From: Candidatus Omnitrophota bacterium
Lineage (GTDB): Bacteria; Omnitrophota; Gorgyraeia; Zapsychrales; Fredricksoniimonadaceae
NCBI GenBank assembly: GCA_903901225.1
Contig: CAIUQE010000049.1
Coordinates: forward strand, 5,003 to 69,002
Direction of reading: 5' to 3'
DNA: 64,000 nt
The translations under genes and the position numbers were made by a program. Of the stretch, positions 12,751-63,720 are shown piece after piece. Within the stretch, counting starts at the first letter, position 1; each line of letters begins with the position of its first letter. The notes under the pieces were generated by a model, which did not search any database, had not been told where the DNA came from, and was given only the letters and a program-made list of their open reading frames with translations.

Positions 12751-14865
12751 ATGTTGAGTGATTGTTTCTCTAAAGAATTATTTTCGTCGCGCCTTATGGC
12801 CGGGAGCACTGCGGCGAGTTTCTTGATCTCATTGCTAGTGCCGCCGTTGGTCATGGCGCAAACGCTTGTTCTTCCGGTTCCTGGAATGATGGTGACCCAA
12901 AGTCCGGCGTACATGCCGGTCATGACGCGCGGGCTTAAGGTCCATCCTGAAAATCCCCTTCTGTTTGATTTTATTGTGGATGCCGGTGACTCCGGTTTCG
13001 TGGTTGAAGGTCCGCAGTTCAAGGCTGAATCCGAAAAACTCATCAAATACTTTCTCGCCTCGCTCGCGGTCAAGGAAGACGACCAGTGGGTGAACCTGTC
13101 TCCCTATGAAAAAGACCGCATGATCCCTGAAAACCTGGGGAAGACCGAATTGGGTCACGACATGCTGGCGCAGGACTATATCCTCAAGCAGTTGACGGCT
13201 TCGCTGATTTATCCCGAGAAAGAGCTGGGGAAGGAATTCTGGACCAAGGTGTATGAAAAAGCTCAGGCGCAGTTTGGCAGCATTGATGTGCCGGTGGATA
13301 CGTTCAACAAGGTATGGATCACAGCCGACAAGGCGCGCGTCCTGGAACGCAATAACACGGCGTATGTTGTCGGCGCGCACCTGAAAGTCATGCTTGAGTC
13401 AGACTACGAAGCCATGTCCCGCCAGGATACCCTCGCGCGTAGGGGAGAGGCACTGCCTCGCCTCCAGGACTCGGCATCCCGGGAACTGACCAAACAGATC
13501 ATGCGCGAGGTCATCATACCCCAGATCGAAAAAGAAGTGAACGAAGGCAGGAATTTCAGCCAATTGCGCCAGATATTCTACGCCATGATCCTTTCTACCT
13601 GGTACAAGCGTGCCCTGAAAAACTCCCTTTTGAACCATGTCTACAGCAACAAGTCCAAGACCAACGGCGTCGAGAACGCTGACCCGGCGGTGAAGGAAAA
13701 GATCTACGCCCGGTATCTGGAAGCCTACCGCAAGGGCGTGTTCAACTATGTCAAGGAAGAGACTAACGCGGCGGGCGAAACGATCCCGCGTAAGTATTTC
13801 TCGGGTGGTATTGCCAGGAACCTTGGGCTGAAAGATCATGCGATGGAAGTGGTTGATAAAGCGGCAGTGGGGGATTCTTTTGAACTGAAGAATGCCGCTT
13901 TGGTCGATGCTTCGTTAGTTGATGCCGCGGAGGTAACGGGTAAAAATTTTTCAGGCAGAAAGACGCGGTGGGTGCCACCCCGCAAGCTTTTGATGAAAGA
14001 CGCCGAGAAGTCGCAAGATGCGAGTATGTCAAAGCCAACGCCGATAGGAACGCTTATAAAATTGATCGATCTGTCGGTGGAATATTTGATCAAGTGTATC
14101 GAGGTCATTAATGAAAGCGTCACTTCAGGCAATGTTCATGTTCCTGACATAAAAGATGTTACGAAAGTGGCGGCGTTGCCAAAGGATGGATCAGTCGGTC
14201 CGCGGGCCAACAGTAAAAAAAATCTGTTGCTGGATCCCACGACGCCGCTCAAGAAAGTCATGTCCGAGGTGCGCCTTGCTTTCGCCAAAGAAGATATGAC
14301 ACCGCAACAGATCCAGGATCTGGCCGTTCAGATAAAGATCTATACGTATCAAAAAAGTAATTTTTGGGATATGGGATCCTCAGCAGGAATTATTGAATAC
14401 TTTTTAAATTACGGTATCGATGCGTATGAAAAGTTTAAAAATGAACATAAAGATGATCAGGCGCGGTGTATCGCAATTTTTTTGCAGGAATTAAGCAATG
14501 GCGCTGTCTATGAAAAGACCGACCATCTTGTTGGACTGGAAGATCACAAGGGAGAGGATCTTGTCAAAGAAGTTTCGTGGAGTGTCTGGGGAGAGATGGC
14601 CAGGTCCGGGAAGACAATTCGCCAGGCCAATATTGATCCGGCGGAGGATATCAAACGCGATAGTAAAGCAGTTGATGGTGGTATTGACATCAACGGCAAG
14701 AACCTGACGCTGGATGTGACGCGCGAGGGTAAGGGTGCTGAGACGAAATTCGACCCGGCTATGGTCGCGCGTTTCGAACGCGGCGATTTCACGGGGTTCG
14801 TCCCGATCATTTTGAAGGTAACGCCGCTGGGTAACATTGGCTTGTCGCCGGGAATGGGAGGCTGA
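12751..14865 (+). CDS. Giant-paralog family member 1 (704 aa). It has a signal peptide, a conserved ~330-aa N-terminal domain (unknown family), a variable middle, and a conserved ~60-aa C-terminal tail.
   Basis: The N-domain shares LKVHPENPLLFDFIVD...KYFLASL..DLWVNLSPYEKDR...DTFNKVWI...REVIIP.IEKEVNEG.NF..LRQ....I...WYK...VFNY..EE......IPRKYFSGG with ORFs 14868, 19398, 23914 and 26969. The C-tail is DGGIDINGKNLTLDV...KFDPAMVARF...GFVPIILKVTPL. Confidence 0.85.
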   Translation: MLSDCFSKELFSSRLMAGSTAASFLISLLVPPLVMAQTLVLPVPGMMVTQSPAYMPVMTRGLKVHPENPLLFDFIVDAGDSGFVVEGPQFKAESEKLIKYFLASLAVKEDDQWVNLSPYEKDRMIPENLGKTELGHDMLAQDYILKQLTASLIYPEKELGKEFWTKVYEKAQAQFGSIDVPVDTFNKVWITADKARVLERNNTAYVVGAHLKVMLESDYEAMSRQDTLARRGEALPRLQDSASRELTKQIMREVIIPQIEKEVNEGRNFSQLRQIFYAMILSTWYKRALKNSLLNHVYSNKSKTNGVENADPAVKEKIYARYLEAYRKGVFNYVKEETNAAGETIPRKYFSGGIARNLGLKDHAMEVVDKAAVGDSFELKNAALVDASLVDAAEVTGKNFSGRKTRWVPPRKLLMKDAEKSQDASMSKPTPIGTLIKLIDLSVEYLIKCIEVINESVTSGNVHVPDIKDVTKVAALPKDGSVGPRANSKKNLLLDPTTPLKKVMSEVRLAFAKEDMTPQQIQDLAVQIKIYTYQKSNFWDMGSSAGIIEYFLNYGIDAYEKFKNEHKDDQARCIAIFLQELSNGAVYEKTDHLVGLEDHKGEDLVKEVSWSVWGEMARSGKTIRQANIDPAEDIKRDSKAVDGGIDINGKNLTLDVTREGKGAETKFDPAMVARFERGDFTGFVPIILKVTPLGNIGLSPGMGG
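13437..13465. repeat. GCGTAGGGG-hairpin family, copy 3 (degenerate stem gaggca/tgcctc), embedded in-frame in paralog 1, encoding ...ARRGEALPRLQ...
   Basis: gcgtaggggagaggcactgcctcgcctcc. It has the same 9-nt leader as the intergenic copies. It lies in the variable linker of the N-terminal domain. Confidence 0.45.
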
Positions 14866-14867
14866 TC

Positions 14868-17800
14868 ATGCGCTGTCGCGGCGTTTGTATAATAACAGCT
14901 TTCTTCTTCACTACATCCCAACTGGCATTCCTTCCGGCCAGGGGAGATGCCGCGGTTTACACACCGCCTCAAATGGGCTTTTTGACCCCAACGGCGCCCT
15001 CCCGGGATATCCTTCTCCACGGTCTTGAATTGGACCCGAATACGACCCGCAGGATGAAATTCATGTTCAGGGCTGGTGAGAAAGAGCTTTTGCCGGCCGA
15101 TGCCATGCGGCAGATAAAATATTTTTTGACCGCGCTGACCATTCCCGAGAATGACCTGTGGGTCAATTTGTCGCCGTTTGAAGCAGACCGTATCATTTCC
15201 TATCCTTTTGGCGTGACGGATATGGGACGAGGGTTTCTGGAGCAGGATTATATTTTAAAACAGTTTTGCGCGTCATTGCTTCACCCGGAAAGCCCCAGTG
15301 GCAGGGAATTCTGGGCACGGATCCGCCAGGCCGGGCTTGGATCAGCGGCATTGGACAACAATGGCCAGTTCAAATTTATCGACAAGGTATGGATCACACC
15401 GAGGGATGCCATCGTTAAACAGGATCACGGCAGGGTTTATATCCGCAAGAGCCGTCTGCAGGTCATGTTCCGGGAAGATCCCGGAGTTGTTGCCGTTTCA
15501 TCCGAAAAGATCTCCGGGATCATCAGGGAAGTCCTCTTGCCATATATTGACAGGGAGGTCAACGAAGGAAAGCTTTTTATGACACTGCGTCAGATGTACG
15601 CGGCGATGATCCTCGCGGAATGGTTCAAGCGCTACGTTGCCGGAAAGTCTGTATGGCGGCAGGCTTTCATTGGCCAGAAGAAGGTGGGCGGTCTTGATAT
15701 TGATGACCCTGCTGTTCCCCTAAAGGTTTACGGCAATTATTTAAGAGCGGTTGAAACGGGGGTTTTTAATTATGTCCATGAAGACGTGGATCCGGGGACC
15801 GGAGAAGTCATTCCACGGAAATATTTTGCCGGCGGGATCTCGGCCGGTTCAGGCCCGTCCAGCCTGAGGCATATCTTGCGTGTCGAGGACAATGATCTGC
15901 CTTCCGATTTCGCGGAAAAATCTCCTGACAAGGACACGGAGATACCGGTGTGGATGCAGGATATCCCGGCGAGGCCTGTGGATGTTAATAGTCAGCTGAA
16001 AGACCAGGTCAGGAAAGGCCTTGTCTGCCGGGTTACGCGCAAGGAGGACGGATTTGTTTTTAAACCGGAAGTCCCTTATGGCATAGAACCTGACCTGATC
16101 AGGGTGTATTCCATGACCGCGAAAACATTCGTGCTGCAAAAGCAATACGCGGCGTACCTTGAGGCGGCGCGCGCACGCCAGGCACTTTTGGATGCCATGC
16201 AACACCATGAGGAAGCGTTCAGGGATTATACGGCTTCCCGGAAGGAGGCGCTTGTGCGTATCGCTTCGGAGATCGACCTGTACCTTGTGAACGGGAGTTT
16301 TACTTTGTTCCGTAACGGACCTTTAACACATATTCGCTGGGGAACGTATCGTAGTGACAATGATCTTTCCTATTCCGGCATCTGGCTTGGTGAGCGTGTG
16401 TTGTCGGCGTTGGATCAGGATGAATTTTCCGCGTTCCTGTTGCTGGAAGCGCGCAATTTTCTGGATGGGAACAATGAAAAGATGGAAGCCTATCCTTTGT
16501 ACAGGAAGATCGCGGCGTTGTCAGGATCTTCAGGCGAAACAATACCGCTCATGGAAGGGCAGGATCAGTCCCTGACATCGTTGCGTCAAAGGCCGGAAAA
16601 CAGCCCCGGTAACAGCGCATTTTTTATTAACAGCACACTGCCTCAGGAACGCCAGCTTTACAAAGAATCTCTGGCGGCTCGTTTTGCCGGTACGGACTTG
16701 ACAGTGAATGAAAGAATGAAGGTCGTTAACGCGTTGGCGAGGATATCTGATGAAGCGCTGCGCCTGCGCCGTGAAAGCTGGCCTTTTTTGGAGGCGCAGA
16801 AGATTTCCCGCCAGGAGGATATTGACGCCGTTGCCATGGCTAAAAACCTTCTTGCGGAAAAGAACAAATACGCGTTGTTGCAAAACGAGGTTTACGAAGC
16901 ACTCTTCTCCTCTGATGAGGTCGAGTCTTTGTTGTTCAAGAAGCTTATTCCGTATGCCTGGGTCGAGCTTCTTCTTCATGAAGGTGCTTCTACCAAAAGC
17001 ATCCTTTTCCTTTGCCAGCATAGTGATGATCCGCTCGGCCAATGGGAAAAGATATGCGCTTTCAGGGCAGTTTACGAGAAAGACGGTGTGCCGCCGGCAT
17101 GGGCGCTTCTTTTGTCTTTTTCGGGGAAGAAGGTCATGGACCTGTGGGAAACCACTTTAAAAAATGAGCGAGAGGATCTGGTTCGTCAGGGACTTGACCC
17201 GTTGTGGGCCACGTATCTTGTCCTGATGCATCCACGCGATGCCGTGCGTTACTGGAATGATGACATTGAACCTAAGAAAAGAAAGATCCAGCAGGAACGC
17301 GGATTGAGCGACGCCTGGGCAACCTTTTATGCCGTGTTTGACAATGAAAGTTTGAAACACGACGATTCTCCTTTCGCGTTCCTTAGGGGGGCTGATTCCC
17401 TGAATTTGCAAGCTCCGGACCTGGCTCTTCTGCAGGATGAGGGGGTTGCGATGGGGCTTGATCTGCCTCACGACGGAAAGGTGCAATGGGAGCAACAGAT
17501 ACAGCACTGGCAAAGCGCCTTGATGAAGAAGGGTTTTGAAGAGCCTCTTTTGACGTACCTTCTGCGCGCTTATCAGAACCCGATGGAGAAAGCGGTCAAG
17601 ATCGAGGAGCTGGCACTGCTGATCAAGAGGTTCGATCCGCGGGTCAAATGGCAGGAAGCGTTATTGACAGCGTTCAAGCTTTTTCATCCGCGATCTTATG
17701 CGGACAAACAGGAGGCGCGCGGTACCGGCGATATCATCAAGCATCTTCTGTTCGGGCGCGGCAAGCGGGGGCACAGGAATTATTATCAGGGATATATTTT

Positions 17801-18659
17801 CGCTTCAAAGTTCGAACGCGACACAGCCATTATCCTGCGGTATTTCGGATTGATCGGGAATATTCAAATGGGGAAGAACTGGCAGGTGCCGATGGATCAG
17901 CTTTGCGTCGATTTCAAGTTCGAATATAAGGGCAGGCAGATCATCATGGAGCCTCACCAGGAGCCGCAGGGCCAGTTGTATCTTGTCAATCGGGCGGATA
18001 TCGAACATATACTGGGGAATGACCCGCGGACCCTGGAGTATTTGTTCGTTAATCCGAGTATGAGATCGTTGAAATTCCATCCTGATTTTCTGTCCAGAGT
18101 GGATCGGCTTTCTTTGGCTGACGTCAGAAAAGATATTCTCAGGAATCTTTGGCAGATCAATATGGGGCGGACCATCTCCAGTTACGCGGCCGACCGTGAA
18201 AATACCCTGCGTCAGTTCGAACACACGAATTTTTCCTTGTATGCCTTTGAGTCCACACAGAAACTCTATGGCATCCTTCAGGATTATTTCGATATAACGG
18301 TCACTTCAAACGATAAAAAAGCGATCTCTCGGCTTATAACGGAAGCGAATTCCAGGAGTGATTATCATATTGTCAACAGCCTGTTGATGTACTGGACCGG
18401 CATGAGCAATTTACAAAAAGCGCTTGAGGGCGAGGGCGTGTTGAAGAAGAGAGCGCGAGATCTTGCCGGCACAACGGTTGGGTCGGAGAACGGCGGTATT
18501 GATTTTGATCAGAAATACCTGGATCTGAAAGTTGAGCCTGGAGAAGAAATTCAGGACAGCTTCCATGCGCCATATCCTGCTATTTCGGACAGGGGTCTGG
18601 ATGGCTTGAGGCCTGTGATCCTTCATGTCAACGCGCGCTTTATCGATATCAGTTTGTAA
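14868..18659 (+). CDS. Giant-paralog family member 2 (1263 aa). The conserved N-domain is the most divergent copy. It has a long unique middle of unknown function and the conserved C-tail.
   Basis: N-domain: ...KYFLTALTIPENDLWVNLSPFEADR...KVWITPRDAIV...REVLLPYIDREVNEGKLF..LRQMYAAMILAEWFK...VFNYVHEDVDP.TGEVIPRKYFAGG. C-tail: NGGIDFDQKYLDLKV...RPVILHVNARF. RBS GGGAGG lies before the ATG. Confidence 0.85.
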   Translation: MRCRGVCIITAFFFTTSQLAFLPARGDAAVYTPPQMGFLTPTAPSRDILLHGLELDPNTTRRMKFMFRAGEKELLPADAMRQIKYFLTALTIPENDLWVNLSPFEADRIISYPFGVTDMGRGFLEQDYILKQFCASLLHPESPSGREFWARIRQAGLGSAALDNNGQFKFIDKVWITPRDAIVKQDHGRVYIRKSRLQVMFREDPGVVAVSSEKISGIIREVLLPYIDREVNEGKLFMTLRQMYAAMILAEWFKRYVAGKSVWRQAFIGQKKVGGLDIDDPAVPLKVYGNYLRAVETGVFNYVHEDVDPGTGEVIPRKYFAGGISAGSGPSSLRHILRVEDNDLPSDFAEKSPDKDTEIPVWMQDIPARPVDVNSQLKDQVRKGLVCRVTRKEDGFVFKPEVPYGIEPDLIRVYSMTAKTFVLQKQYAAYLEAARARQALLDAMQHHEEAFRDYTASRKEALVRIASEIDLYLVNGSFTLFRNGPLTHIRWGTYRSDNDLSYSGIWLGERVLSALDQDEFSAFLLLEARNFLDGNNEKMEAYPLYRKIAALSGSSGETIPLMEGQDQSLTSLRQRPENSPGNSAFFINSTLPQERQLYKESLAARFAGTDLTVNERMKVVNALARISDEALRLRRESWPFLEAQKISRQEDIDAVAMAKNLLAEKNKYALLQNEVYEALFSSDEVESLLFKKLIPYAWVELLLHEGASTKSILFLCQHSDDPLGQWEKICAFRAVYEKDGVPPAWALLLSFSGKKVMDLWETTLKNEREDLVRQGLDPLWATYLVLMHPRDAVRYWNDDIEPKKRKIQQERGLSDAWATFYAVFDNESLKHDDSPFAFLRGADSLNLQAPDLALLQDEGVAMGLDLPHDGKVQWEQQIQHWQSALMKKGFEEPLLTYLLRAYQNPMEKAVKIEELALLIKRFDPRVKWQEALLTAFKLFHPRSYADKQEARGTGDIIKHLLFGRGKRGHRNYYQGYIFASKFERDTAIILRYFGLIGNIQMGKNWQVPMDQLCVDFKFEYKGRQIIMEPHQEPQGQLYLVNRADIEHILGNDPRTLEYLFVNPSMRSLKFHPDFLSRVDRLSLADVRKDILRNLWQINMGRTISSYAADRENTLRQFEHTNFSLYAFESTQKLYGILQDYFDITVTSNDKKAISRLITEANSRSDYHIVNSLLMYWTGMSNLQKALEGEGVLKKRARDLAGTTVGSENGGIDFDQKYLDLKVEPGEEIQDSFHAPYPAISDRGLDGLRPVILHVNARFIDISL

Positions 18660-18672: not shown

Positions 18673-19302
18673 TTATTGGACAACAGACGGATGCATTTTC
18701 CGTTGAATGGCTTGAGTGGTTGGGTCACCAGTGGGCAAAGCGCTCAGCATTTGATCCAGGGCGTATTTGAGGTTTTTGACGTCCTCCCGTAAACCGGGAA
18801 CGTCCTGAGCGGTGATTTGCGCTTTAAAGTTGTTGAGTTGTTCATTGATATCGTCACATTGTTTGTTCAGATCAGGGATCTGATTTCGCGCGGCATCTGT
18901 TTTTTCTTCAACCTTGAGCAAGGTTGTCACGTAGTCTTTTTGCCAGCCGTTCATTGTTTTTTTCAGTGCGTCCGTTTCTTCGCGCGTTGTTTTTAAGGCA
19001 TCATTGGTTGTTGAAAGTATATGCGTGGTTTTGTCAGTCAGTTCTTTCTGGGAAGTCAGCAGGGAGCTTTGCTCGTTGAGCTGTCGTTTCAGGGTTTCGA
19101 TGTCAGCGCGCAGGGCGCGGGTCTGTTCGTTCTGATCGAGCAGTTTCATGTTGGCGGTCTTAAGGTCGTTGCGTTGCTGGTTGCAGGAAAAGTACAGGTA
19201 GAGGAGCATCGACACGGCCGCTATCGCGAGGATCCCGAGCGAGACAGGTCGCGCGGATTTCCGGATATTAGAAAGTAATAGTTGTGGTGTTTGCTTGTCC
19301 AT
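18673..19302 (-). CDS. Coiled-coil membrane protein (N-terminal TM helix, then a ~150-aa Q/K/E/L-rich coiled coil). It is embedded on the opposite strand between giant paralogs 2 and 3.
   Basis: TM LGILAIAAVSMLLYLYF, then heptad-like ...LKRQLNEQSSLLTSQKELTDKTTHIL...ETDALKKTMNGWQKDYVTTLLKVEEK.... It is the only gene interrupting the array. Confidence 0.5.
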   Translation of the reverse strand: MDKQTPQLLLSNIRKSARPVSLGILAIAAVSMLLYLYFSCNQQRNDLKTANMKLLDQNEQTRALRADIETLKRQLNEQSSLLTSQKELTDKTTHILSTTNDALKTTREETDALKKTMNGWQKDYVTTLLKVEEKTDAARNQIPDLNKQCDDINEQLNNFKAQITAQDVPGLREDVKNLKYALDQMLSALPTGDPTTQAIQRKMHPSVVQ

Positions 19303-19397: not shown

Positions 19398-22300
19398 ATG
19401 AAAAAGACCATAGCGTTCCTTGTTCTTGTTAGTTTTTTTGTTACAAACATCGGCCAAAGTGCAACGTATGCCCAAAGTTTTCACTTGCCCGCAGCCGGAG
19501 GCATGGTCCATCTAAGTTCACCGTTCGACCCGATAATGCTTCAAGGCATTAAAGTTCATCCTGAAGATCCGTTCAGGTTCGATTTTATTGTTGATAAGGG
19601 CGATAGCTCACTGGGTCATGATCAGTTCAAAGGGGAATCAGGAAAATTGATCCGGTACTTTCTTGCCAGTCTGACGACGCCGGAAAAAGACCTGTGGGTC
19701 AATCTTTCGCCTTACGAAAAGGATCGTGTTATTCCTGATAGTTTTGGTTTGACGGAAATGGGCCGTGACTTGCTGGCGGAAGATTACATTCTTAAACAGG
19801 TCACAGCCTCATTGATCTATCCGGAGGATGCCATAGGAAAAGAATTCTGGAAACGTGTTTATGAAGAAGCCGCAAGGAAATTTGGCAGGACAGATATCCC
19901 GCTTGATACCTTCAATAAAGTTTGGATCGTTCCCCAAAAGGCTGTGGTGTACGAGAATGTTAAAGCGGGGATAGCTTATGTCGTGGAAGCCAGGCTTAAC
20001 GTCATGCTTGAGCAGGATTATTTATCTCTCCAGCAACATGTGACAACACGACCTGAACAGGGCACGGCGGAAGAGGCCAATCAGCTGGGAAGCCAGATAG
20101 TACGTGAAGTGGTTATCCCTGAATTAACCCAAGAGATCAACCGGAACAGCAACTTTGCCCGTCTGCGACAGGTCTATAATGCATTGATCCTGGCCACATG
20201 GTACAAAAAGAAGATCAAAAACAGCATATTGTCCCGGATTTATGTCGACAAAGATAAAACGGCCGGGGTCCAATATGCCTCGACAGTCCTTCCGCCTGCA
20301 AAGGGCGTCAGGGCCAAGGATGATGTTGAGGGGATCTATCAGGAATATGTGAAAGCATTTCAAAAGGGTGTTTATAACTATATCAAGGAAAGTGAGGATC
20401 CTGTGACGGGGCAGGTTGTCCCCAGGAAATATTTTTCAGGTGGTTTTGGTGCGACAGACCTTTCCCAGGTGACGTTTGAAACGACACAAGATCCCGCGGC
20501 GGTTTCATTGGAGAAAAAGCCTCTATGGGACATATCCGTACAGCTTGCCGGTGCCAAAGGCCCGCGCGATGCGTCGATGCTTCCCAGGCCTTTGGGAATG
20601 GAACATGTTCGGGAGCTGCTGGATGCTTATATTGCTGATCACAGATCGCGGGATTTATTCCGGGATTTAAAGGGAATGGGGATCGAGCCAAACCAATTTA
20701 AAGACGTATTGCACGCGCAATTTCAGGCCATTTACCAGGATTATCCGCACGGGGCTGTGAATCCGGTGCAATTGATCAAGGAGGATCCCCGGTTGAAAGA
20801 TTTCCTGGTACGTCTTTTCACTCAAAGAAAAGTTCGCGCGGGGATGGATCCTGAGGTGATGAACAAAGTTTTTGACAAATTGATCCAATATGGGGAAGAC
20901 CCTGAATTGGCAAGGCATAAAGTTTATGAGGAGGTCATTGATTTTGAACGTGATCGGGATTGGCTCAAGTTCAGGGGGAAAAAAGATGTTTCCGACCATG
21001 GGTTAGCTCAGATTCTGCCGTTTATTCAGGATATTAACCTGCTTTCTGGGGCTACTGTTGTCAATGTGGGGGCCAATAATTCCGGGTTAGGCGCCATGAT
21101 CGCTGAAAAGTTCCCGGGTTTAAATATAGTAGATTCTGACATTGAATCAGCCAGGACCGTCGGTTGGGAAAATCCTGCGGGTCTTGCGAATCTCTCCTTT
21201 CACCATCAACCTGGCCCCATGCAGACAGGGTTTGATGATAAATCTGTTGATGTCATTATTTTAAGCAGCATGCTCCATCATGTGACGATCCAGGCTTTCG
21301 ATGGATTCATTAAAGAATTGCGCAGGATCCTTAAGCCTGGAGGGAGGATCATTTTGCGAGAAGACAGTTTTTCATATTCTGAACAGGTGGCTGCAACGGA
21401 TGGACTCAATGAGGCATTAACGCGCGAATTTTTGAGCCATGATGAACAATTCATCATTAACGCGTTCATTTTTATTGACTGGTTTGCCAATACGGTCATG
21501 AACAAGCGCATTATGCCGATGCCGTTTGATTTTCAATCACAGGAGACATGGCAAAAGGTTTTCGCGCATTACGGGTTTTCAGAAGAGAGCGCAACTACCT
21601 ACGGCATGCCTTATATGCGTTCAATGCAGGAATTCCGGTTGACGTCAAATGCAACGCCGCGTGTGCCGCTCGCCATTCGCGTTGACCCGAACACCAGGTT
21701 AAACCTTCTTTTTAGCCTTCTCTTCACACCTGTGCAGCAAAAGAGTCTGCAAATTTCCTATGGGATCAGGGACGTGGAACGTGCTGGTTGGGTGTTCAAT
21801 AAGATTCTTTCCCCTGAAACAGTTGCCGATCATAGCTGGGGAACAACGCTACTGGCATTGTTGTTGGCACCTTCAACATTGGATGTGAAGCGTGTTATCG
21901 CGATGGCCTTAATGCATGATATTGCCGAAGGTCCCATGAAGAAAGATTATCGTCCTGGAGAGATCGATGAGAAAGTAAAGCATGCCATGGAGGAAGCTGT
22001 CTTTTCAAAAGTCATACAGCCTTTTTCCCAGCGGGACGAATGGGACAGTATGTTTAAGGAGTTAAATCTGGCTACAACCCCTGAAGCAAGGTTCCTCAAA
22101 GTTGTGGACAGATTTGATATGTGGTTACAGGCGAGATTTTATAAGAAAGTGTACGGGGACAGGATCGATTTCGAAAGTTTCTTTAATAATGCCAGAGCCA
22201 TGTTTGAAAAACAGGGTGACATTGGAAAACATGTCCTGGGTATTGTTGATAATCCTTCAAAAAACAAGGACCTCCTTGACGCGCTGGACAAAATTTATGA

Positions 22301-23819
22301 ATTAAAGCTGTCATCTGAAATGAGGAAGGGATCCCCGGCTTCAGAGGCATGGACAAAAAGCTGGACATACCTGAGCACAACATCGGTAGAAAACGACATT
22401 TTACCAGGCCTAGGTTTGTTAACGTTGGCGCCCATACTTGCTCGACCAGATCTCAAGGGCTCTTTAGATGTAATTTTAGAACATTCGTATAATCCCAAGT
22501 TTTTACAGAACGTTGTTGAAACAGCCGGGAATGAGCAAAATCGCGGTTTGATCGATGATATCACGCAAATTGTCAACAGGATCTCCAATGACCGTATCAA
22601 GGGGGCGGTTCCGCAAGATACATCGATCCTGCTCAAGACAGACAAGGATATACTTCATTTTCTTCTCCTTGCGGCCCAGGATCGTCCGAAGGAATATCCA
22701 TTGGCCCGGGTTGCCGCAGGGTTTGTGGCGGGCAATGATCGTTTATCGGATGAGATCGGGGTTAATCATTATGGCTCTCATGAACATGCCGAAATAAACC
22801 TGATCTTAAGCATACTTGAAAAAGAAGCTGTCAATGTGCAGCCTAAAAGGCAAGGCAAATATGAAAAGTTGCTAAAACAGGTACGGAAGTTTGTAAAAAA
22901 GGAGAAATTAGATACTAAGAAAGGATTGTTTTTGATCCGCAAGGTCCTTAGGTTAGCGGACCAGCCGTTCAAGGATGGAAGTTTTTATGTGACACTCATG
23001 CCATGCAGTTCTTGCCAGAATATTTTGAAAGAACTCGGCCTTAAAAGGATCATTTATTCTGAAATACATCCTGATTCCCAAAAAGCAGAAAAGTGGCAGC
23101 GTCAATTTGAAAAGCTTTCCAAGAAGAATGGGATCAAAATTATTCACGTTGACATGTTGGCGGCCGAAGTTCAGCCCAATCAGCTTTTCGCTTCAATTGT
23201 CGCAAAGTCCCCGGAAGGGCATAGCCGGTTTCAGGAAGCATATCACGGGTTCATAGATCGGAACATGGATGAGGATGCCGTTGCATTAATTGACAAATGG
23301 TTGTCAGTTCATAAGAGCAAGCTTGTTGATATCATTGCGTTCTTCGGGAATGTGATGCCGGATGACGCTCCGGTTCTTTTTGATATTTTGTTTGGTCGCG
23401 TTGTGGATGTCGACAAGTTGAAGGATGTATTTCAGCGATATGGGGATACGGAAGGATTTGCTTCATATCTGAGCGCGGTCCATCGTATCTCGCATAGCAC
23501 GTATGTTGATCAAGTTATCAATAAAGCGTCCATGAGTGTTATTGAAAGAAGTCCTGATAAGGCCATGCGAACAACAGATGGTGGTATTGATCTGGGTCCG
23601 GATAAAATGAATTTGGAACTGCGGCAGGATGATGGGGAAATTCAATTTAATCTGGATCCAGGCATGGTCGAACAATTTCGGGCGGTTCCTGGTTTCGTGC
23701 CGGTTATTTTCAATATCCAGCCGATGACGAACCTGAAGATGTTTTTAGGGTTGAAGGAGCAGGGAGATCAGCAGATGATAGGCGCCGTTGCATCGACGCC
23801 GCCCGGCATGGCAACCTGA
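19398..23819 (+). CDS. Giant-paralog family member 3 (about 1470 aa from the ATG at 19398). It has a signal peptide and the conserved N-domain. Its cargo has a class-I SAM-MTase-like segment, an HD phosphohydrolase domain, and a CDA-like zinc deaminase motif. It ends with the conserved C-tail.
   Basis: Signal peptide MKKTIAFLVLVSFFVTNIGQSATYAQS (RBS GGAG 7 nt upstream). MTase-like VVNVGANNSGLG...LKPGGRIILRED. HD: HSWGTTLLALLL...ALMHDIAEGP. Deaminase: GSHEHAEINLI (22779-22793) ...YVTLMPCSSCQNILKELGLKRIIYSE (PCxxC at 23001-23015). C-tail: DGGIDLGPDKMNLEL...NLDPGMVEQF...GFVPVIFNIQPMTNLKMF. Confidence 0.85.
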   Translation: MKKTIAFLVLVSFFVTNIGQSATYAQSFHLPAAGGMVHLSSPFDPIMLQGIKVHPEDPFRFDFIVDKGDSSLGHDQFKGESGKLIRYFLASLTTPEKDLWVNLSPYEKDRVIPDSFGLTEMGRDLLAEDYILKQVTASLIYPEDAIGKEFWKRVYEEAARKFGRTDIPLDTFNKVWIVPQKAVVYENVKAGIAYVVEARLNVMLEQDYLSLQQHVTTRPEQGTAEEANQLGSQIVREVVIPELTQEINRNSNFARLRQVYNALILATWYKKKIKNSILSRIYVDKDKTAGVQYASTVLPPAKGVRAKDDVEGIYQEYVKAFQKGVYNYIKESEDPVTGQVVPRKYFSGGFGATDLSQVTFETTQDPAAVSLEKKPLWDISVQLAGAKGPRDASMLPRPLGMEHVRELLDAYIADHRSRDLFRDLKGMGIEPNQFKDVLHAQFQAIYQDYPHGAVNPVQLIKEDPRLKDFLVRLFTQRKVRAGMDPEVMNKVFDKLIQYGEDPELARHKVYEEVIDFERDRDWLKFRGKKDVSDHGLAQILPFIQDINLLSGATVVNVGANNSGLGAMIAEKFPGLNIVDSDIESARTVGWENPAGLANLSFHHQPGPMQTGFDDKSVDVIILSSMLHHVTIQAFDGFIKELRRILKPGGRIILREDSFSYSEQVAATDGLNEALTREFLSHDEQFIINAFIFIDWFANTVMNKRIMPMPFDFQSQETWQKVFAHYGFSEESATTYGMPYMRSMQEFRLTSNATPRVPLAIRVDPNTRLNLLFSLLFTPVQQKSLQISYGIRDVERAGWVFNKILSPETVADHSWGTTLLALLLAPSTLDVKRVIAMALMHDIAEGPMKKDYRPGEIDEKVKHAMEEAVFSKVIQPFSQRDEWDSMFKELNLATTPEARFLKVVDRFDMWLQARFYKKVYGDRIDFESFFNNARAMFEKQGDIGKHVLGIVDNPSKNKDLLDALDKIYELKLSSEMRKGSPASEAWTKSWTYLSTTSVENDILPGLGLLTLAPILARPDLKGSLDVILEHSYNPKFLQNVVETAGNEQNRGLIDDITQIVNRISNDRIKGAVPQDTSILLKTDKDILHFLLLAAQDRPKEYPLARVAAGFVAGNDRLSDEIGVNHYGSHEHAEINLILSILEKEAVNVQPKRQGKYEKLLKQVRKFVKKEKLDTKKGLFLIRKVLRLADQPFKDGSFYVTLMPCSSCQNILKELGLKRIIYSEIHPDSQKAEKWQRQFEKLSKKNGIKIIHVDMLAAEVQPNQLFASIVAKSPEGHSRFQEAYHGFIDRNMDEDAVALIDKWLSVHKSKLVDIIAFFGNVMPDDAPVLFDILFGRVVDVDKLKDVFQRYGDTEGFASYLSAVHRISHSTYVDQVINKASMSVIERSPDKAMRTTDGGIDLGPDKMNLELRQDDGEIQFNLDPGMVEQFRAVPGFVPVIFNIQPMTNLKMFLGLKEQGDQQMIGAVASTPPGMAT

Positions 23820-23913: not shown

Positions 23914-26871
23914 ATGAATCTTCGTAAGAAAACTTTTATGTTTCGCTTGATGGCAGGCTGGATCATTTGCAGTTTTGTGTCTTCTGCCGTGATCCCGTCG
24001 GGTGCGCATGCCCAGGCGCTTAATTTGCCGGCGCCCGGCACCCGCATTTCTTTGAGCCCCGGTTTCACGCCGCCGCTTCTTAAGGGCATCAAGGTTTTTC
24101 CCGACGATCCGTTCCGTATTGATTTTATCCTTGATAAAGGTGATTCTGCCGGAACAGATGATCAGGTCAAGACAGATTCTAACCGGCTCATCAAGTACTT
24201 CCTCGCGTCGCTCACTGTTCCCGAAAAAGACCTTTGGGTTAATCTGTCGCCGTATGAAAAAGACCGTACTGTGCCAGATGCTTTTGGCCGGACCGAGATG
24301 GGCCGTGACCTGCTGGCCCAGGATTATATGCTGAAACAGATCACAGCATCTGTTTTCTCCCCGGATGGTGAACTCGGCAGGGCATTTTGGGCCAGGGTTT
24401 ATGCCGAAGCTCAAAAGCGTTACGGCACAACGGATATTCCGGTGGATACTTTTAACAAGGTCTGGATCATGGCGGACAAAGCCGTTGTTTACGACAACAA
24501 AGACACGGCTTTTGTTGCCGAAAGCCGCTTGAAGGTTTTGCTTGAAGAGGATTACCTGGCCTTGAAGCAGGAAGCGGGGGAGGGCCATGGTGACGCCCAC
24601 ACACTGGCTTCCAATGTGATCCGTGAGGTGATAATTCCCGCTCTTGAGAAAGAAGTCAATGAAGGCCGGAATTTCAGCACATTGCGACAGGTGTATCGGT
24701 CCCTGATCCTGGCGATATGGTACAGGAAGAAATTGCAAGGTGGGATCCTGACGCGGGCTTATGTTGGCAGGAACAAGGTGGCAGGCATCAATATCCGTGA
24801 CCCTTTTGAAAACCAGAAGATCTACAGCCGCTATGTGCAGGCATTCCGGGATGGCGCGTTTAATTACATTAAAGAAGAGGTGGACCGTTCTTCCGGGCAG
24901 ATGATCCCGCGGAAATATTTCTCCGGAGGCTTGGGTTTTATGGACGCGGCGGAGCACGTTGTCAGTTTGCCTATGAGTTACAGCGTTATGCCAGCTGTTG
25001 ACAAAGGACAGGGATGCTGTCACATCACGACACGGCTACAACCCCTTTCCAGTCCAGAACGGGTACTGGCCGCTGGCCATATTTTGTTGATACCTGACGG
25101 GAAGAACAGCACGCGCGTGGAGATGGGGATCCCGCCGGATGTCAGACTCTCTATGGTCGAGAAGATGCGCAAGGCCGAAGATTTTTCCATGACGAGCGAT
25201 GGTCAGGGATCCAGGCGCCTGAGATTCAGGATCAACAGTTCGGTAGAGAAGATCAGGAGTTTTCTGAATTTTGTTCCCTGGGAGCGGCATGCGGCCAAGG
25301 TCCTGGTGGCCGGGACAATGGTCTTTTCGTTTGTTGCGCTTTCATCACAGGTGCCGGAACGCGCCATCACCGTGGTGGACATGGTGCTGGTCGCGTTTAT
25401 CCTGCTTCTGGAATTGCTGGAGCGCCAGGAAAAGAGATTTCTTTCGGACCATGATTATTGGCTGAAGGTGCTGGAACGTTTCTATGACCAGGGGGTGTTC
25501 TCTAACGGTCATTCCGCACAGGAAGTGATGAGATTTTATCGTCGCTATTATCAGGAATTTGTGGACAACCTGGATGATGACCGGGAAGAAGAGACCCTGG
25601 AGTTGCTGGTCGGGACTTTGCCTGAGAAGGATATTCTGGATCTGACACACACGCCGCGCACAAAGTTCGAGGAGCGTCTCGGGTGGGCCTGGAGCAGGCG
25701 TGCGGAGAAATATAAGGAATTTATGAAGGCCCATCAAGGCTATGGGCACGTATTCCAAGCCAGCGGCCAGGAGAATTTGAAGGGTTTATCCCAGGAATTC
25801 GTGACACAGGCGTTGCAATTTTATAATACCCAGGACCATGCGGTCAGGTATTTTCTGAGCAAAACAGAGCGGGACGATCTGGCCAGGTTCCTGGCCGGGC
25901 ATATACCGGCCATACAAAAGTCCCGGATCATTGATGTGGGACCGCACCAGCCAAGCGTTATTCAGCAGTTGATGTACTGGGATCTTGTCTACCAGGCCGT
26001 GGATACGTTTTCATCGTCGTCAAAGGATGATTCCCAATCGACTGAAAAAGAGATGTCGATGAAAATAAGGAATGAGCTGGAAGGATTCGGCTTTGATTGG
26101 CGCAACGGGAAAGTCTTCTGGGATCCGCTGAAGAACAGGCATGCTGAATGGGATCCGGACATCTCATGGGTTCCAAAGGATGGTGGGTTGGATGTCAAGG
26201 AAATGGGAGACTTGCCATCTCTTGAAATTGAAGGCATGTTGCCTTATACAGCGTCATCACATGCCTTGTTCCTGAGTGTGGTCGACATTAAAGGACGCCG
26301 TCTACCCGTGGTTATTAAGCAGTATGATGATGTATCAGGGGGTGTAGGTTATTATGTTATGGCGTTTGTTCCTGGGGAAGCAAGGACATTATCGAGAATC
26401 AGTTCTTTGGAGAGGGACGGATTCCTGCCCCTTGATCTGGTAGATAAACGTAAGCAGGTCACCAGGTTCTTTGTTAAAAAATTTTATCATCCTCCTGAGG
26501 AATTTATTTATACGCCCAAGGGTAATGTGATCCCCATTGATCCGGAAGAGTTTGATAGCATGGCCGGAACGTTGAAGGTGCCCTCCGTAGAGCCTGCCAA
26601 GGCATATATTTGGGGCCAGTTAGGTGGGCCGGAATTCTATGGCCTTGTCAAATTTTCAATAAATGGCAGCGGTCAGACGCATGAGAACGAGGGAGGGGTC
26701 GATCTGACCACGGGCACGATAGACTGGCGGGCCCAAGATCAGGGGGGAAGAGAAGGATCGGATACCGACTTTGCCATGTTGCGGGGCCTGGACAGGGTCA
26801 CAGGTATTTCGCCCATGATCGTGAGTATCCAACCCGTGACGGACATGAAATCATTTTTCCATATAAAATAA
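23914..26871 (+). CDS. Giant-paralog family member 4 (985 aa). It has a signal peptide, the conserved N-domain, a unique middle containing a hydrophobic helix, and the conserved C-tail.
   Basis: N-domain: ...IKVFPDDPFRIDFILDKGDS...KYFLASLTVPEKDLWVNLSPYEKDR...DTFNKVWIMADKAVVY...REVIIPALEKEVNEGRNFSTLRQVYRSLILAIWYRKK...AFNYIKEEVD..SGQMIPRKYFSGG. Hydrophobic stretch VLVAGTMVFSFVALSS...VLVAFILLLELL. C-tail: EGGVDLTTGTIDW...FAMLRGL...GISPMIVSIQPVTDMKSF. Confidence 0.85.
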   Translation: MNLRKKTFMFRLMAGWIICSFVSSAVIPSGAHAQALNLPAPGTRISLSPGFTPPLLKGIKVFPDDPFRIDFILDKGDSAGTDDQVKTDSNRLIKYFLASLTVPEKDLWVNLSPYEKDRTVPDAFGRTEMGRDLLAQDYMLKQITASVFSPDGELGRAFWARVYAEAQKRYGTTDIPVDTFNKVWIMADKAVVYDNKDTAFVAESRLKVLLEEDYLALKQEAGEGHGDAHTLASNVIREVIIPALEKEVNEGRNFSTLRQVYRSLILAIWYRKKLQGGILTRAYVGRNKVAGINIRDPFENQKIYSRYVQAFRDGAFNYIKEEVDRSSGQMIPRKYFSGGLGFMDAAEHVVSLPMSYSVMPAVDKGQGCCHITTRLQPLSSPERVLAAGHILLIPDGKNSTRVEMGIPPDVRLSMVEKMRKAEDFSMTSDGQGSRRLRFRINSSVEKIRSFLNFVPWERHAAKVLVAGTMVFSFVALSSQVPERAITVVDMVLVAFILLLELLERQEKRFLSDHDYWLKVLERFYDQGVFSNGHSAQEVMRFYRRYYQEFVDNLDDDREEETLELLVGTLPEKDILDLTHTPRTKFEERLGWAWSRRAEKYKEFMKAHQGYGHVFQASGQENLKGLSQEFVTQALQFYNTQDHAVRYFLSKTERDDLARFLAGHIPAIQKSRIIDVGPHQPSVIQQLMYWDLVYQAVDTFSSSSKDDSQSTEKEMSMKIRNELEGFGFDWRNGKVFWDPLKNRHAEWDPDISWVPKDGGLDVKEMGDLPSLEIEGMLPYTASSHALFLSVVDIKGRRLPVVIKQYDDVSGGVGYYVMAFVPGEARTLSRISSLERDGFLPLDLVDKRKQVTRFFVKKFYHPPEEFIYTPKGNVIPIDPEEFDSMAGTLKVPSVEPAKAYIWGQLGGPEFYGLVKFSINGSGQTHENEGGVDLTTGTIDWRAQDQGGREGSDTDFAMLRGLDRVTGISPMIVSIQPVTDMKSFFHIK

Positions 26872-26968
26872 TTCGTGTTTGCTGCGGATATGTCTGTGCA
26901 GAATTATGTTGTCGTTGGCAAGATACAAACATGTTACAACATAAAAGGATATATTTCATATTTTAGGC

Positions 26969-29900
26969 ATGCTCAAAAAGACAGTTTCCTCTTTTTTGTT
27001 GTTTGTTTTCTGCCTGACCAGTGTGGCAGCCCCGGACGGCCGTGTGTTCGGCCAGACCGTGGCTGTCCTTCCGGCTCCTGGAATGTTGGTGACCCCAAGT
27101 CCGGCGTATATGCCGGTCATGGCGCGCGGGTTAAAAGTCCATCCGGAAAACCCCCTTTTGTTTGATTTTATTGTGGATGTCGGTGATCCCGGTTTCGTCG
27201 TTGAAGGATCTCAGTTCAAGGCTGAGTCCGAAAAACTCATCAAATATTTCCTCGCTTCGTTGACAGTTCCCGAAAAAGATCTTTGGGTGAATCTTAGCCC
27301 TTACGAAAAAGACAGGATCGTTCCGGAAGCTTTTGGCCGGACAGAAATGGGGCGGGATTTGCTCGCCCAGGACTACATTTTGAAACAGATAACAGCATCG
27401 CTCATTTACCCGGATGAGAAGACAGGCAAGGAGTTCTGGGATAAGGTCTACGCCCAGGCGTTGAAACGTTATGGCACTACGGATGTCCCGGTAGACACGT
27501 TCAATAAAGTGTGGATCGTCCCCGAGAAAGCCACGGTTTATGAGAACAATGATGCGGCTTATGTCGTTGAATCCGGATTAAAGGTTATGCTGGAGAGTGA
27601 TTACGTAGCCATGTCCCATCAGAAGGACATGGCGGAGTCCTCGGCACCCGCCGAGGATGTGACCATGTCCCATCAGAAGGACATGGCGGAGTCCTCGGCT
27701 CCCGCCATGCAAAATGAGGAAATGGTGCGTAGGGGCGGGTCTCAGACCCGCCCACTTGAGACGGCTACGCAAGAATTAGCCAAACCGGTTCTTCGTGAAA
27801 TCATCATTCCCATTCTCGAAAAAGAAGTGAACGAGGGCAAGAATTTCACAGCGTTACGCCAGGTCTACAGCTCGCTGATCCTCGCGACATGGTACAAGCG
27901 GAAGTTCAAGGCCGGAATTTTCGGCCAGGCCTACGTCGATCAACAGAAGACCGCTGGCGTAGACATTGCTGATAAGAACGAGAAAGAGAAGATCTGGGCG
28001 CAGTATGTTGAGGCGTTCCAAAAGGGTACCTATAACCTGATCAGAGAGGAAGTTGACCCAACAACGCAAGCGATAGTGCCAAGAAAGTATTTTTCAGGTG
28101 GCTGTGATCTGGCGATGGATGTGTTCAAGACGGCCTCGTCTGCTGTATTACCAGTGTTGGCTGATCGCGCGGCCATTGTTGAGGTGAAGGTCGATTACGC
28201 ACAGGAGGATCAGGAGGGATCTGACACGCCTCCCAGTTTGACCCGTATTGACGATATTAAGCGGCTTTTTACCGGGCTCAATGATCTGGACGACCGGCTG
28301 GGAGTTCCTCATTATAATTCCAGATGGCATCGTGAAGGAGGTTATGACGCCACACTCAAGGATCATTTACAGCGGATATTGAATGTGAAGAATGATATCC
28401 TCAGCCATAATTTTCCAGGGAGCGATCAGGATCAGGAGCTGATCTCCCTGGTGAGAGCGTATGCGTCCAGGGACAATGATGAACTGGATGCCATGATCTT
28501 GTTGCATGATCATGGGAAAAAAGAAGCGGCTTTCAGGAATAAGCATGGCGATATGGGGTTTAAGGGGCATGAAGAAAAAGCTTATCGTTCGCTCATTAAT
28601 AACAAGGTGATGTATAAAGGGAAAGCCTTGTCCCATAGGATCAAAATGGCTGTTAAATATCACGATATGCACTGGAAGATCAATTATGCCCATCCGGGAG
28701 AGTTTGAAAAAACAATCCACATGATGCGGAAGGATTTTAATGGGTCACTGGATGACTTTGAAGAAGCCTGCGAGTTTATAACAGCATTCTCTGTGATCGA
28801 TGTTCTGGGATCTTTATGGGAAGGCGATCGTCGGGGTGATCTGGGTAGCGTCAGAACATTCCATGAGCATTTTCTGGCCTGGAAAAAGGCGCGCAAGAAG
28901 TTTGACAGGGCGGAGGATCATTCCGTTGTTTTTGGAGGCGGGAAGTTAAATTTGGATCATCCGCTGGTCATATCAGGGCGGATCATTGGCATTGAGGATT
29001 ACGACAATGTCGGTGGATCAAATTTGGCGGATTATGCCAGGAAGAAAGATGTTAAACGTATTTATTTTGACCTGGACCTGACGGTCTTCCGGTCCATGGG
29101 GTATGTTTCTTCCAGCCAGTGGTTTGAGCACGCGTCTAAAGAGTTCGGACTGGAACAGACCTTATGGTGGTGGGGTAACAGGGGTCATGAGGCGCGCCAG
29201 ATCGATAACGATTTTTTCTTCAGGTTAATGGATCCCGGGATCCCGGCCATGATCGAAGGTTTGAAAGCACAGGGCATTGAATGCGTTGGATTGACCGCGC
29301 GCGATAATGACAAGGATGAACCGCGCACGCAGGAGATCCTTGCGAGATTTGGCGTTGAAATGAATGATGTGATCTTTGCGTCCGGCGCGGCGGCCAAGGC
29401 CCAGGCTGTGGATGATTATGAGAAAGGTCATGGCCGTTTGCGGGCCTTGTTTGTGGAAGACAGTTTCTTTAATTTGGAGAAATTTTTGCCTGTTCACGCG
29501 CATGTGGATGCTATTTTTTACCGGCCTGTGAATGCCAATCAGGAAGATGAATGGGATCATAAGGTCTATCTTGAAAAAGCCCGTGCGGACACGTCCAACG
29601 GGCATAAGTTTGAATATTATTTCAATGCCGTGGTCAAGATCCTGGAATTAAAGGGCATTACTCGTGAGATCGCCTATGAGCAGTTGCATCAGATCCATCA
29701 CGAGCTTCTGCGGTTGCCAGACCCCAAGCCGGCAGGGTATGACAAATTAATTCAGGTCCTGGAGATCAGTAAGAAAGGCCAGTCGTATTTGTTCCATGAT
29801 CCAGAGGCGCGGGAATTGCGGGAGAAGAGATCCAAAGACAGGGCGATGCTCAGGGATCCCGGCGGTATCGACCTTACCCCCGGCAAGATCGCCCTGAAGA

Positions 29901-43923: not shown

Positions 43924-44070
43924 TGAAGTTTCCCTCCTTATGAATGTTGATGGGCTGAGGTACTTTTTTCCCTGAAAATATGAAGTTAGGAGGGGAGAGT
44001 TTATTTCATATCCCCGTTAGTCGTTCAAAGGGCGTTACCTGACCGGTCGGTATACCTTAAGGGGACGTTT

Positions 44071-44463: not shown

Positions 44464-44563
44464 TCTAAGCGATTTTTATTCGTTTTAACGGTAGCATGAG
44501 CGGGTTGGGGATTTTATCAATATAAGATCGATAAGGGACTGCTGGAATAAGGTTTTTTGAAAT

Positions 44564-63714: not shown

Positions 63715-63720
63715 TGCCAC

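Follow-up and report, generated by a model that had tools for sequence, protein, structure and literature searches.

Does a secreted protein that carries a methyltransferase fold, a phosphohydrolase and a zinc deaminase act on free nucleotides or on nucleic acids? This question is raised by a gene in a 64-kb stretch of contig CAIUQE010000049.1 from a Candidatus Omnitrophota bacterium (the window; nucleotide positions count from its first letter). Omnitrophota are abundant, almost uncultured nanobacteria that are thought to live on other cells. The open reading frame (ORF) ends at 23819 on the + strand. Its mechanical start is a GTG at 19284; the form starting with the ATG at 19398, from which residues are numbered here, contains 1473 amino acids (aa), has the N-terminus MKKTIAFLVLVSFFV and is 100% identical to database protein P0001. 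The gene is the third of five tandem + strand genes (12751-14865, 14868-18659, 19398-23819, 23914-26871 and 26969-30043) and is referred to as paralog 3. An earlier note on this DNA had favoured nucleic-acid editing. The predicted architecture, a lineage-specific scaffold with three enzyme domains, is established at the sequence level. Our preferred reading, to which we assign a probability of roughly 45%, is that paralog 3 is a Sec-exported modular effector acting on pyrimidine nucleotides.

Three enzyme domains in paralog 3

The methyltransferase-like, HD and deaminase motifs that had been described in ORF 19398-23819 were all found where the earlier note had placed them, and the three domains gave Pfam matches above the family cut-offs. 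The phosphohydrolase is of the HD_3 (YfbR/HDDC2) type and is encoded at 21768-22193 (+ strand). The Pfam match spans aa 791-932 (E = 3.3e-22, 79.6 bits versus a cut-off of 22.5) and is that of an ordinary HD_3 member, with predicted metal ligands H812 (nucleotide (nt) 21831), H840 and D841 (nt 21915-21920) and D904. Human HDDC2 (4dmb) matched this domain over 148 aa with an E of 1.1e-16, and yeast YGL101W and two archaeal homologs (PH0347 and 1xx7) were matched as well. HD enzymes of the HDDC2/YfbR type are 5'-(deoxy)nucleotidases.

The zinc deaminase domain, assigned a CDA fold from Pfam and clade-profile matches, spans aa 1078-1260 (22629-23177, + strand). Its predicted catalytic residues are H1130 and E1132 of an HAE motif (aa 1130-1132, nt 22785-22793) and C1203 and C1206 of a PCSSC motif (aa 1202-1206, nt 23001-23015). 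The dCMP_cyt_deam_1 family (PF00383) matched aa 1081-1221 over profile positions 3-101 of 102 (E = 1.2e-6, 28.7 bits versus a cut-off of 25), and the deaminase segment alone scored 35.9 bits (E = 7.1e-9). The spacing of about 72 residues reported earlier was confirmed exactly, since H1130-A-E1132 and P1202-C-S-S-C1206 lie 72 aa apart. This is outside the usual ~25-30 residues; we regard it as a variant feature that does not exclude the domain from the CDA superfamily. The additional residues form an insert (aa 1144-1193; 22827-22976, + strand) that separates the HAE helix from strand beta3, has about 50 aa and is conserved in length and pattern. A helical extension follows the deaminase (aa 1261-1390; 23178-23567, + strand). 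The extension has no family match and travels with the deaminase, being present in P0125/L003, P0126 and P0127-P0129 even where the methyltransferase and HD domains are missing. By motif and profile, the paralog 3 domain is assigned to the CDA superfamily; it is neither a canonical dCMP deaminase (ComEB/DCTD/T4 Cd) nor a member of a named toxin-deaminase family.

The third domain, of class-I S-adenosylmethionine (SAM) methyltransferase fold, occupies aa ~545-660 (21030-21377, + strand) and has a degenerate motif I, GANNSG. Pfam matches were obtained with Methyltransf_11 (aa 571-653, E = 3.9e-10, 40.7 bits versus a cut-off of 21.2) and Methyltransf_25 (aa 556-649, 31.8 bits versus a cut-off of 27). 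The motifs of this segment are VVNVGANNSGLG (aa 553-564, nt 21054-21089) and LKPGGRIILRED (aa 645-656, nt 21330-21365). The nearest solved proteins are the small-molecule methyltransferases PEAMT (5wp4), NovO/CouO (NovO, 5mgz), Rv0560c and MitM, with E values of ~1e-4 to 1e-5.

The domains are under strong purifying selection. Close homologs of the whole cargo were rare: a collection of 5.8 billion proteins contained only three, the identical P0001, P0002 (88% identity) and the partial P0003 (71%), and all of these retain the insert, HAE, PCxxC and the HD ligands. A fourth homolog (56% identity) comes from L003, a contig with many sequence errors; when its frameshift is read through, GAHEHAEINLIL is followed by the same insert and then by PCLSC. 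The ortholog in the Candidatus Omnitrophica metagenome-assembled genome (MAG) Ki2-D4_bin-0675 (L004:2770-7188) was used to estimate the ratio of nonsynonymous to synonymous substitution rates (dN/dS), which was 0.16 for the whole protein, 0.11 for the methyltransferase, 0.15 for the HD domain and 0.10 for the deaminase. The corresponding ratio of the proportions of differing sites (pN/pS) was 0.12 for the insert alone. Because these values are low, we conclude that the methyltransferase, HD and deaminase segments are functional, selected domains. Synonymous divergence from the same ortholog is mosaic, at 0.21 in the N-terminal domain, 0.17 in the methyltransferase, 0.33 in the HD domain, 0.51 in the pre-deaminase region and 0.57 in the deaminase, which suggests that the 3' half of the cargo had a different recombination history.

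A clade of long-insert deaminases

A word-indexed homolog search retrieved four proteins with the cargo and one with the deaminase profile. The clade emerged only when the deaminase profile was compared exhaustively, as a hidden Markov model (HMM), with 1.84 billion representative proteins, which gave 41 matches at E <=1e-3 and 17 at E <=1e-10 and defined about 17 sequence clusters. In ten of the stronger matches HAE and PCxxC are separated by 66-75 aa. Across the clade the insert measures 44-53 aa and follows the pattern ...L..L..L....KL(D/N).S.EA..LL..L....G.PF.g..vY.TL.PC. As both length and pattern are conserved, the insert is a structural element of the clade and not low-complexity filler. 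The same site is expanded in the giant proteins P0128 (3332 aa) and P0129 (6366 aa), where 201 residues separate HAE from PCxxC; large additions are evidently tolerated at this position.

Twelve clade members that are 19-34% identical to the window sequence share invariant residues, namely the Asn before HAE, the H, A and E themselves, the PF before beta3, the P and both C of PCxxC, and the Gly after helix 3. HAE is replaced by HSE or HGE in P0127, P0132 and P0139. All 12 members matched PF00383. Compared with solved proteins, the clade profile matched CDADC1 (5e-8), 6l2m (1.2e-6), human DCTD (8.7e-6) and T4 dCMP deaminase (1.1e-5). The match to the nucleoside deaminase 6l2m consists of two colinear segments that bracket the insert, with HAE in one and PCxxC in the other.

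A scan of 185,579 species genomes identified seven loci, six labelled Omnitrophota or Omnitrophica and one in a MAG labelled Planctomycetia; apart from this MAG, the named clade members are Candidatus Omnitrophota. We conclude that the long-insert deaminases constitute a previously undescribed, lineage-specific branch with a predicted two-helix hairpin between the HAE helix and beta3.

The fusion partners of the clade were identified with Pfam unless stated otherwise. In six proteins an HD_5 domain (HD-GYP type, 'HHExxDGxGYP') precedes the long-insert deaminase; P0130, P0135, P0137 and P0143 are ~600 aa long and P0141 has 790 aa; the sixth, P0138 (464 aa), is a fragment. LOG/SLOG domains are fused to the deaminase in P0136 and the 4042-aa P0162. 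Inspection by eye revealed that H..HD motifs precede the deaminase in the giant proteins P0128, P0129 and P0145, and it also revealed a Nudix-like segment in P0132 and P0139, which have the N-domain of the paralog 3 family, then the deaminase, then this segment and a GGIDL end. At least three kinds of exported protein carry members of the clade, which is also found in giant proteins of 2-6.4 thousand residues.

An apparent second Omnitrophota export framework was observed among these proteins. It is characterized by a signal peptide, a conserved (C/N/T)LSPA(L/V) motif and a C-terminus ending in ...QAI, MAI, TAI or SAI, and was seen in L010:4981-6792, L010:7110-10994 and proteins P0133, P0135, P0137, P0141 and P0143, the relatives likewise having signal peptides. 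It carries HD plus long-insert-deaminase cargo; in L010 it is also found on an unrelated 1294-aa neighbour.

The export scaffold and its exchangeable cargo

The cargo of paralog 3 is framed by a scaffold that is shared by all five tandem genes. A Sec signal peptide, MKKTIAFLVLVSFFVTNIGQSATYA, is predicted at 19398-19472 (+ strand; cleavage site placed by eye); it is the sole hydrophobic segment of the protein, and two Lys precede its hydrophobic core. A signal-anchor topology, which would leave the cargo in the cytoplasm, was rejected by inference from the positive-inside rule. The family-defining N-domain follows (aa 28-356; 19479-20465, + strand) and ends in PRKYFSGG. A linker, or helical lead-in to the cargo (aa 357-544; 20466-21029, + strand), has no family match and is conserved in P0002. 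At the other end lies the family C-module, GGIDL...PVIFNIQP...FLGL, with a tail and the stop codon (23568-23819, + strand), which is present in all five paralogs. Alignment of the five proteins showed that a signal peptide, a ~330-aa N-domain ending in PRKYFSGG and a ~60-aa C-module (GGIDL...PVIxxIxP...FLGL) are common to all, and that the central regions are mutually unrelated. Paralog 3 contains each of these scaffold elements when aligned with its four paralogs and 120 database members.

No sequence match and no fold match was detected for the N-domain (~330 aa). Its relatives number at least 1313; those with a named source, which are few, are labelled Omnitrophica/Omnitrophota, save one partial sequence labelled Minisyncoccia. 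The C-module occurs together with the N-domain motif in 27 proteins among the family members listed. Pfam families in the cargo of N-domain proteins include HAD, several methyltransferases, HEAT repeats, protein kinase, sugar transferase and HD_3.

Members without cargo also exist. In P0108 (438 aa) only 15 residues separate PRKYFSGG from GGIDL, and in P0029, P0065 and P0115 the N-domain ends in PRKYFSGGV(N/D)L, such that the opening motif of the C-module is fused onto PRKYFSGG. From these junctions, cargo appears to be spliced in at the Gly-Gly pair. Cargo blocks are also exchanged. In L003 the deaminase with its extension comes straight after the N-domain, without the methyltransferase and HD domains. 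P0126 (598 aa) is nearly identical to P0003 in its deaminase part and lacks the entire methyltransferase-HD block in frame: after PRRYFSGG, the first part of the linker corresponding to aa 357-544 joins the pre-deaminase linker directly (compare 20700-22500 in the window). Since this block is missing in frame, we conclude that cargo blocks are gained and lost as units.

Free nucleotides or nucleic acids

Because the nearest solved relatives of all three domains act on small molecules or nucleotides, an effector directed at pyrimidine nucleotides is favoured over an editor of DNA or RNA. The recurrent fusion partners of the clade, which are directed at mono- or cyclic nucleotides, likewise point, by association, to free nucleotides and not polymers as substrates. 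In the proposed mechanism, the CDA-fold domain would deaminate cytosine (deoxy)nucleotides, converting dCMP, dCTP or CMP to the uracil forms, with zinc held by H1130, C1203 and C1206 and E1132 acting as proton shuttle. The HDDC2/YfbR-type HD domain would remove the 5'-phosphate from (deoxy)nucleoside monophosphates, and the methyltransferase fold, with its degenerate SAM loop, may serve as a binding or regulatory module. The net effect would be that the pyrimidine pool of the target is depleted or converted, or that nucleosides are released for import by a metabolically reduced episymbiont. As other cargo of the family, such as methyltransferases and kinases, requires SAM or ATP, action inside a cytoplasm, and not in the periplasm, would be expected. 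Omnitrophota genomes are described as metabolically reduced and host-dependent (bioRxiv 10.64898/2026.06.07.730766), and their giant proteins with methyltransferases, NUDIX, LOG and HAD domains have been read as anti-host effectors (bioRxiv 10.1101/2023.11.21.568195; bioRxiv 10.64898/2026.06.07.730766). The secreted multi-domain effector context proposed in the earlier note fits the signal peptide, the five tandem paralogs that differ in their cargo and the repeated appearance of the clade on exported and giant proteins; its other half, a nucleic-acid toxin, fared less well.

Several observations weigh against a nucleotide-directed effector. For such a protein to reach its substrate, the scaffold would have to display or transfer the cargo to another cell, either host or prey of these host-dependent nanobacteria, and this step is conjecture. 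No secretion system was found in the window, and housekeeping genes surround the array, with AcrB, Nramp, SerRS and RsmB at one end and ThiC, citrate synthase and fumarase at the opposite end. The presumed substrate of the deaminase is inferred only from its nearest relatives and fusion partners; PF00383 also includes tRNA and base deaminases, and most clade members have weak, sub-threshold similarity to the MafB19 and Bd3614 toxin deaminases. The basic charge of the insert in the window sequence would suit polynucleotide binding. In an alignment with PEAMT (5wp4), motif I of the methyltransferase reads VGANNSG where PEAMT has VGCGIGG, with Asn and Ser in place of the second and third Gly. The domain therefore lacks the glycine-rich GxGxG of SAM binding and retains the acidic residue after beta2 (IVDSD); by these motifs it is an atypical class-I member.

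The fold of the deaminase is a further difficulty. An AlphaFold2 (AF2) model of aa 1070-1390, computed from a four-sequence alignment, had a mean confidence (predicted local distance difference test, pLDDT) of 52.9 and was unusable, such that the fold assignment rests on profiles. This low-confidence model contained two helices in the insert (local pLDDT 71-82) and an alpha2-hairpin-beta3-alpha3-beta4-alpha4-beta5 order in the second half, with FYVTL as the strand after the insert; a CDA fold with a hairpin insert would be expected to look like this, but we do not rely on the model. When the clade was compared with ordinary dCMP deaminases by hhalign, just the C-terminal (PCxxC) half aligned. 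The canonical HAE helix fell on the second insert helix, which lacks H and E, and phmmer against DCTD gave the same result. This helix reads '(S/D)EEA..LL' in relatives and lies at exactly the normal HAE distance from PCxxC. The insert may have originated in a partial duplication of helix 2 or in an ancestor with tandem deaminases. Independent confirmation of the N-terminal half comes from Pfam and from the 6l2m match in two segments, not from hhalign, and in view of the hhalign result the exact topology proposed here is provisional. As HAE is invariant across the clade, we take the upstream HAE to be the working motif.

The rival reading that survives best is that the exported protein edits or mutates DNA or RNA of a target cell in the manner of DddA, SsdA or MafB19-type deaminases, with the basic insert serving as a clamp. 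We consider this unlikely. A secreted multi-domain architecture with polymorphic cargo would be expected of such a toxin, and the TadA-like 6l2m is among the best solved matches of the clade profile. Sub-threshold matches were obtained with MafB19-deam in 10 of the 12 clade members (best 2.4e-5), with Bd3614-deam in 11 and with XOO_2897-deam in five, but for paralog 3 all toxin-deaminase Pfam families stayed below their cut-offs (MafB19, 18.8 versus 27 bits; Bd3614, 15 versus 38.5; Toxin-deaminase, 13.8 versus 29.6). The Lys-rich insertion of the earlier note is real, with a net charge of +11 in the window sequence; it is not private to this protein, the insert being clade-wide, and the Lys richness is limited to a sub-lineage (+11/+12, versus -4 to +4 in other clade members), so basic charge is not a feature of the clade. 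Furthermore, the deaminase sits within the protein (aa 1078-1260 of 1473) and not at its C-terminus, no PAAR, RHS, LXG or other toxin-trafficking domain was found in paralog 3 with Pfam, and no small immunity-like gene lies between the paralogs, paralog 4 starting only 95 bp downstream. The partners of the deaminase, an HDDC2/YfbR-type nucleotidase in paralog 3 and HD-GYP-type HD domains and LOG/SLOG in relatives, are enzymes of mononucleotides. The preference for nucleic-acid editing in the earlier note is for these reasons probably wrong; of the two activities that it had offered for the domain trio, editing of nucleotides is better supported than editing of nucleic acids.

A second alternative, which we rate a little lower still, is a self-serving salvage exoenzyme. 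Such a protein would stay in the periplasm or on the surface of its producer, where the HD domain converts external nucleotides to nucleosides and the deaminase converts cytosine to uracil forms for uptake by an auxotrophic cell. The signal peptide, the lack of an immunity gene, the occurrence of HD nucleotidase, deaminase and HAD-type cargo in one family, and the reduced, host-dependent genomes of Omnitrophota (bioRxiv 10.64898/2026.06.07.730766) are all compatible with salvage. A SAM-dependent methyltransferase fold in the protein, and kinase and methyltransferase cargo in its family, need cytoplasmic cofactors, however, and the conserved N- and C-modules suggest trafficking or anchoring beyond residence in the periplasm. 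The presence of the same deaminase clade in proteins of several thousand residues also argues against a salvage enzyme.

It is improbable that the cargo is largely non-catalytic, with at least one domain a pseudo-enzyme of ligand-binding or structural function. The methyltransferase fold would be the foremost candidate in view of its degenerate motif I, and the deaminase might be another if the insert displaced the HAE helix, as the unconfident AF2 model and the profile-profile and local alignments, in which an insert helix without H and E takes the place of the canonical HAE, might indicate. This is opposed by the invariance of HAE and PCxxC among members that are only 19-34% identical, by the intact HD ligands, by a dN/dS of ~0.1 in each domain and by Pfam, which aligns HAE and PCxxC end to end to one dCMP_cyt_deam_1 model. 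Finally, a defence-system reading was rejected, as PADLOC gave only weak matches (mad2 on the methyltransferase, E = 3e-6; dCTPase, 1.6e-4), the protein is exported and its flanks are housekeeping genes.

The tandem array and its surroundings

Paralogs 1 and 2 (704 and 1263 aa; 12751-18659, + strand) have, by alignment, cargo that differs from that of paralog 3 and is without a Pfam match. The cargo of paralogs 4 and 5 (985 and 1024 aa; 23914-30043, + strand) also differs from that of paralog 3. Two strongly hydrophobic segments lie in the paralog 4 cargo (aa 460-505; 25291-25428), making it the sole paralog with candidate transmembrane helices besides the signal peptide. In paralog 5 the cargo (28475-29400) has a weak HD signature, 'LLHDHGKK...KYHD' (PADLOC Cas3-HD, E = 0.0025), and a HAD-like 'IYFDLDLTVF' segment (DUF2608, E = 0.074); it may be another phosphoester-directed cargo. 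Two 44-nt direct repeats in the same gene (27609-27706; 98% identical, starts 54 nt apart) duplicate 'MSHQKDMAESSAPA' in a variable loop of its N-domain. Between different paralogs, DNA repeats reach only 67-79% identity, so recent gene conversion has not occurred.

The G+C content of the array is 0.44-0.52, compared with 0.55-0.60 in the flanks. A scan of the array for promoters and terminators was uninformative, with 30 promoter-like sites versus 20.4 ± 4 expected and terminators at background level. Between paralogs 2 and 3, the - strand (18673-19302) encodes a 209-aa membrane-anchored coiled-coil protein, and a 219-aa counterpart occupies the same position in a related genome (the P0002 contig). 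The five-paralog array is intact in that genome, but its neighbours differ: it is bordered by response regulators plus a GDSL-TPR gene at one end and by an HTH_38 gene at the other, whereas the array in the window sits between SerRS/RsmB and PBP/ThiC.

Elsewhere in the window, 38198-39316 encodes a cytoplasmic response-regulator-HD-GYP protein (HD_5, E = 1e-35), whose HD_5 subtype is the same as that of the ~600-aa secreted HD/long-insert-deaminase fusions. Co-oriented genes of low G+C content (0.33-0.46, versus 0.55-0.60 upstream) fill 44000-64000. They include a PMT_2 glycosyltransferase, an amine oxidase, GDSL-like proteins and four radical-SAM enzymes (two B12-binding, one SPASM), and probably constitute a surface or lipid modification island.

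Implications

Literature searches yielded no account of the scaffold, the GGIDL motif or an Omnitrophota deaminase, and the words 'deaminase' and 'HD domain' are absent from the texts of two preprints on the phylum (bioRxiv 10.1101/2023.11.21.568195 and 10.64898/2026.06.07.730766). No description of the domain combination, of the insert-bearing clade or of the scaffold family was found in the literature and libraries searched. The locus offers a compact, analysable view of Omnitrophota effector logic, in which five genes in tandem combine one conserved export scaffold with interchangeable enzymatic cargo, and it leads to the testable hypothesis that a host nucleotide pool is manipulated or harvested. 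A promising subject for structural biology is the N-domain, for which over 1300 homologs and no fold relative could be detected, and the ~17 sequence clusters of an unexplored deaminase type provide a set for biochemical screening.

A bolder proposal goes further and is more doubtful than our preferred reading. The N-domain and GGIDL module would together form an unrecognised Omnitrophota effector-delivery scaffold that puts enzymes modifying the nucleotide pool into hosts, the CLSPAL...QAI framework and the giant proteins would do likewise, and the long-insert CDA domain would be a new deaminase type whose hairpin confers a specificity unlike that of known dCMP, tRNA or DNA deaminases. Deaminase clades of bacterial conflict systems have already given base editors such as DddA; if the proposal were true, the new type could serve base-editor discovery.

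Comparison with known systems

The dCMP/dCTP deaminases (DCTD, 2w4l; T4 Cd, 1vq2; CDADC1, 9hfq; PF00383) are the best sequence matches of the paralog 3 deaminase. They have in common with it HAE and PCxxC, the Asn before HAE, the 'tlYvTLxPCxxCaxxIxxxGIkxvvY' strand-helix-strand, and a helix and final strand after beta4. The paralog 3 domain differs in its 45-50-aa two-helix insert, in its location within a 1473-aa exported protein and in its beta2-to-HAE loop, which has 5-7 aa compared with 15-30 aa in canonical DCTD/T4 members. It is not an equivalog of the anti-phage dCTP deaminase model NF041025, which scored 17.1 bits versus a cut-off of 400 (E = 0.002).

HDDC2, YfbR and YGL101W (HD_3, PF13023) have the same H...HD...D ligands as paralog 3, and the match is full-length. 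The paralog 3 domain differs in being part of a secreted multi-enzyme protein and, as judged by eye, in an HD-to-Asp spacing after 'HDIAE' that is one residue longer. Anti-phage nucleotide depletion (AvcD/dCTP deaminase, dGTPase HD) follows a similar logic, in which a deaminase and an HD phosphohydrolase act on the dNTP/dNMP pool. Those are cytoplasmic defence enzymes, whereas paralog 3 is predicted to be exported and has no kinase-like N-domain.

The polymorphic-toxin deaminases (DddA, SsdA/BaDTF2, MafB19, Bd3614 and BURPS668_1122), the families of which were reportedly classified by Iyer and co-workers in 2011, resemble paralog 3 in carrying a CDA fold on an exported modular protein with polymorphic cargo. 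Paralog 3 differs from them in falling below every family cut-off, those of YwqJ and SNAD included, in its internal deaminase, in having neither an immunity gene nor a known trafficking domain, and in partner domains that point to free nucleotides. The 'archaeovorin' giants (West-Roberts et al. 2023, bioRxiv 10.1101/2023.11.21.568195) come from the same phylum and draw on the same pool of cargo (methyltransferases, NUDIX, LOG and HAD). In contrast to these giants, paralog 3 is a member, of about 1.5 thousand residues, of a separate scaffold family represented here by five tandem paralogs.

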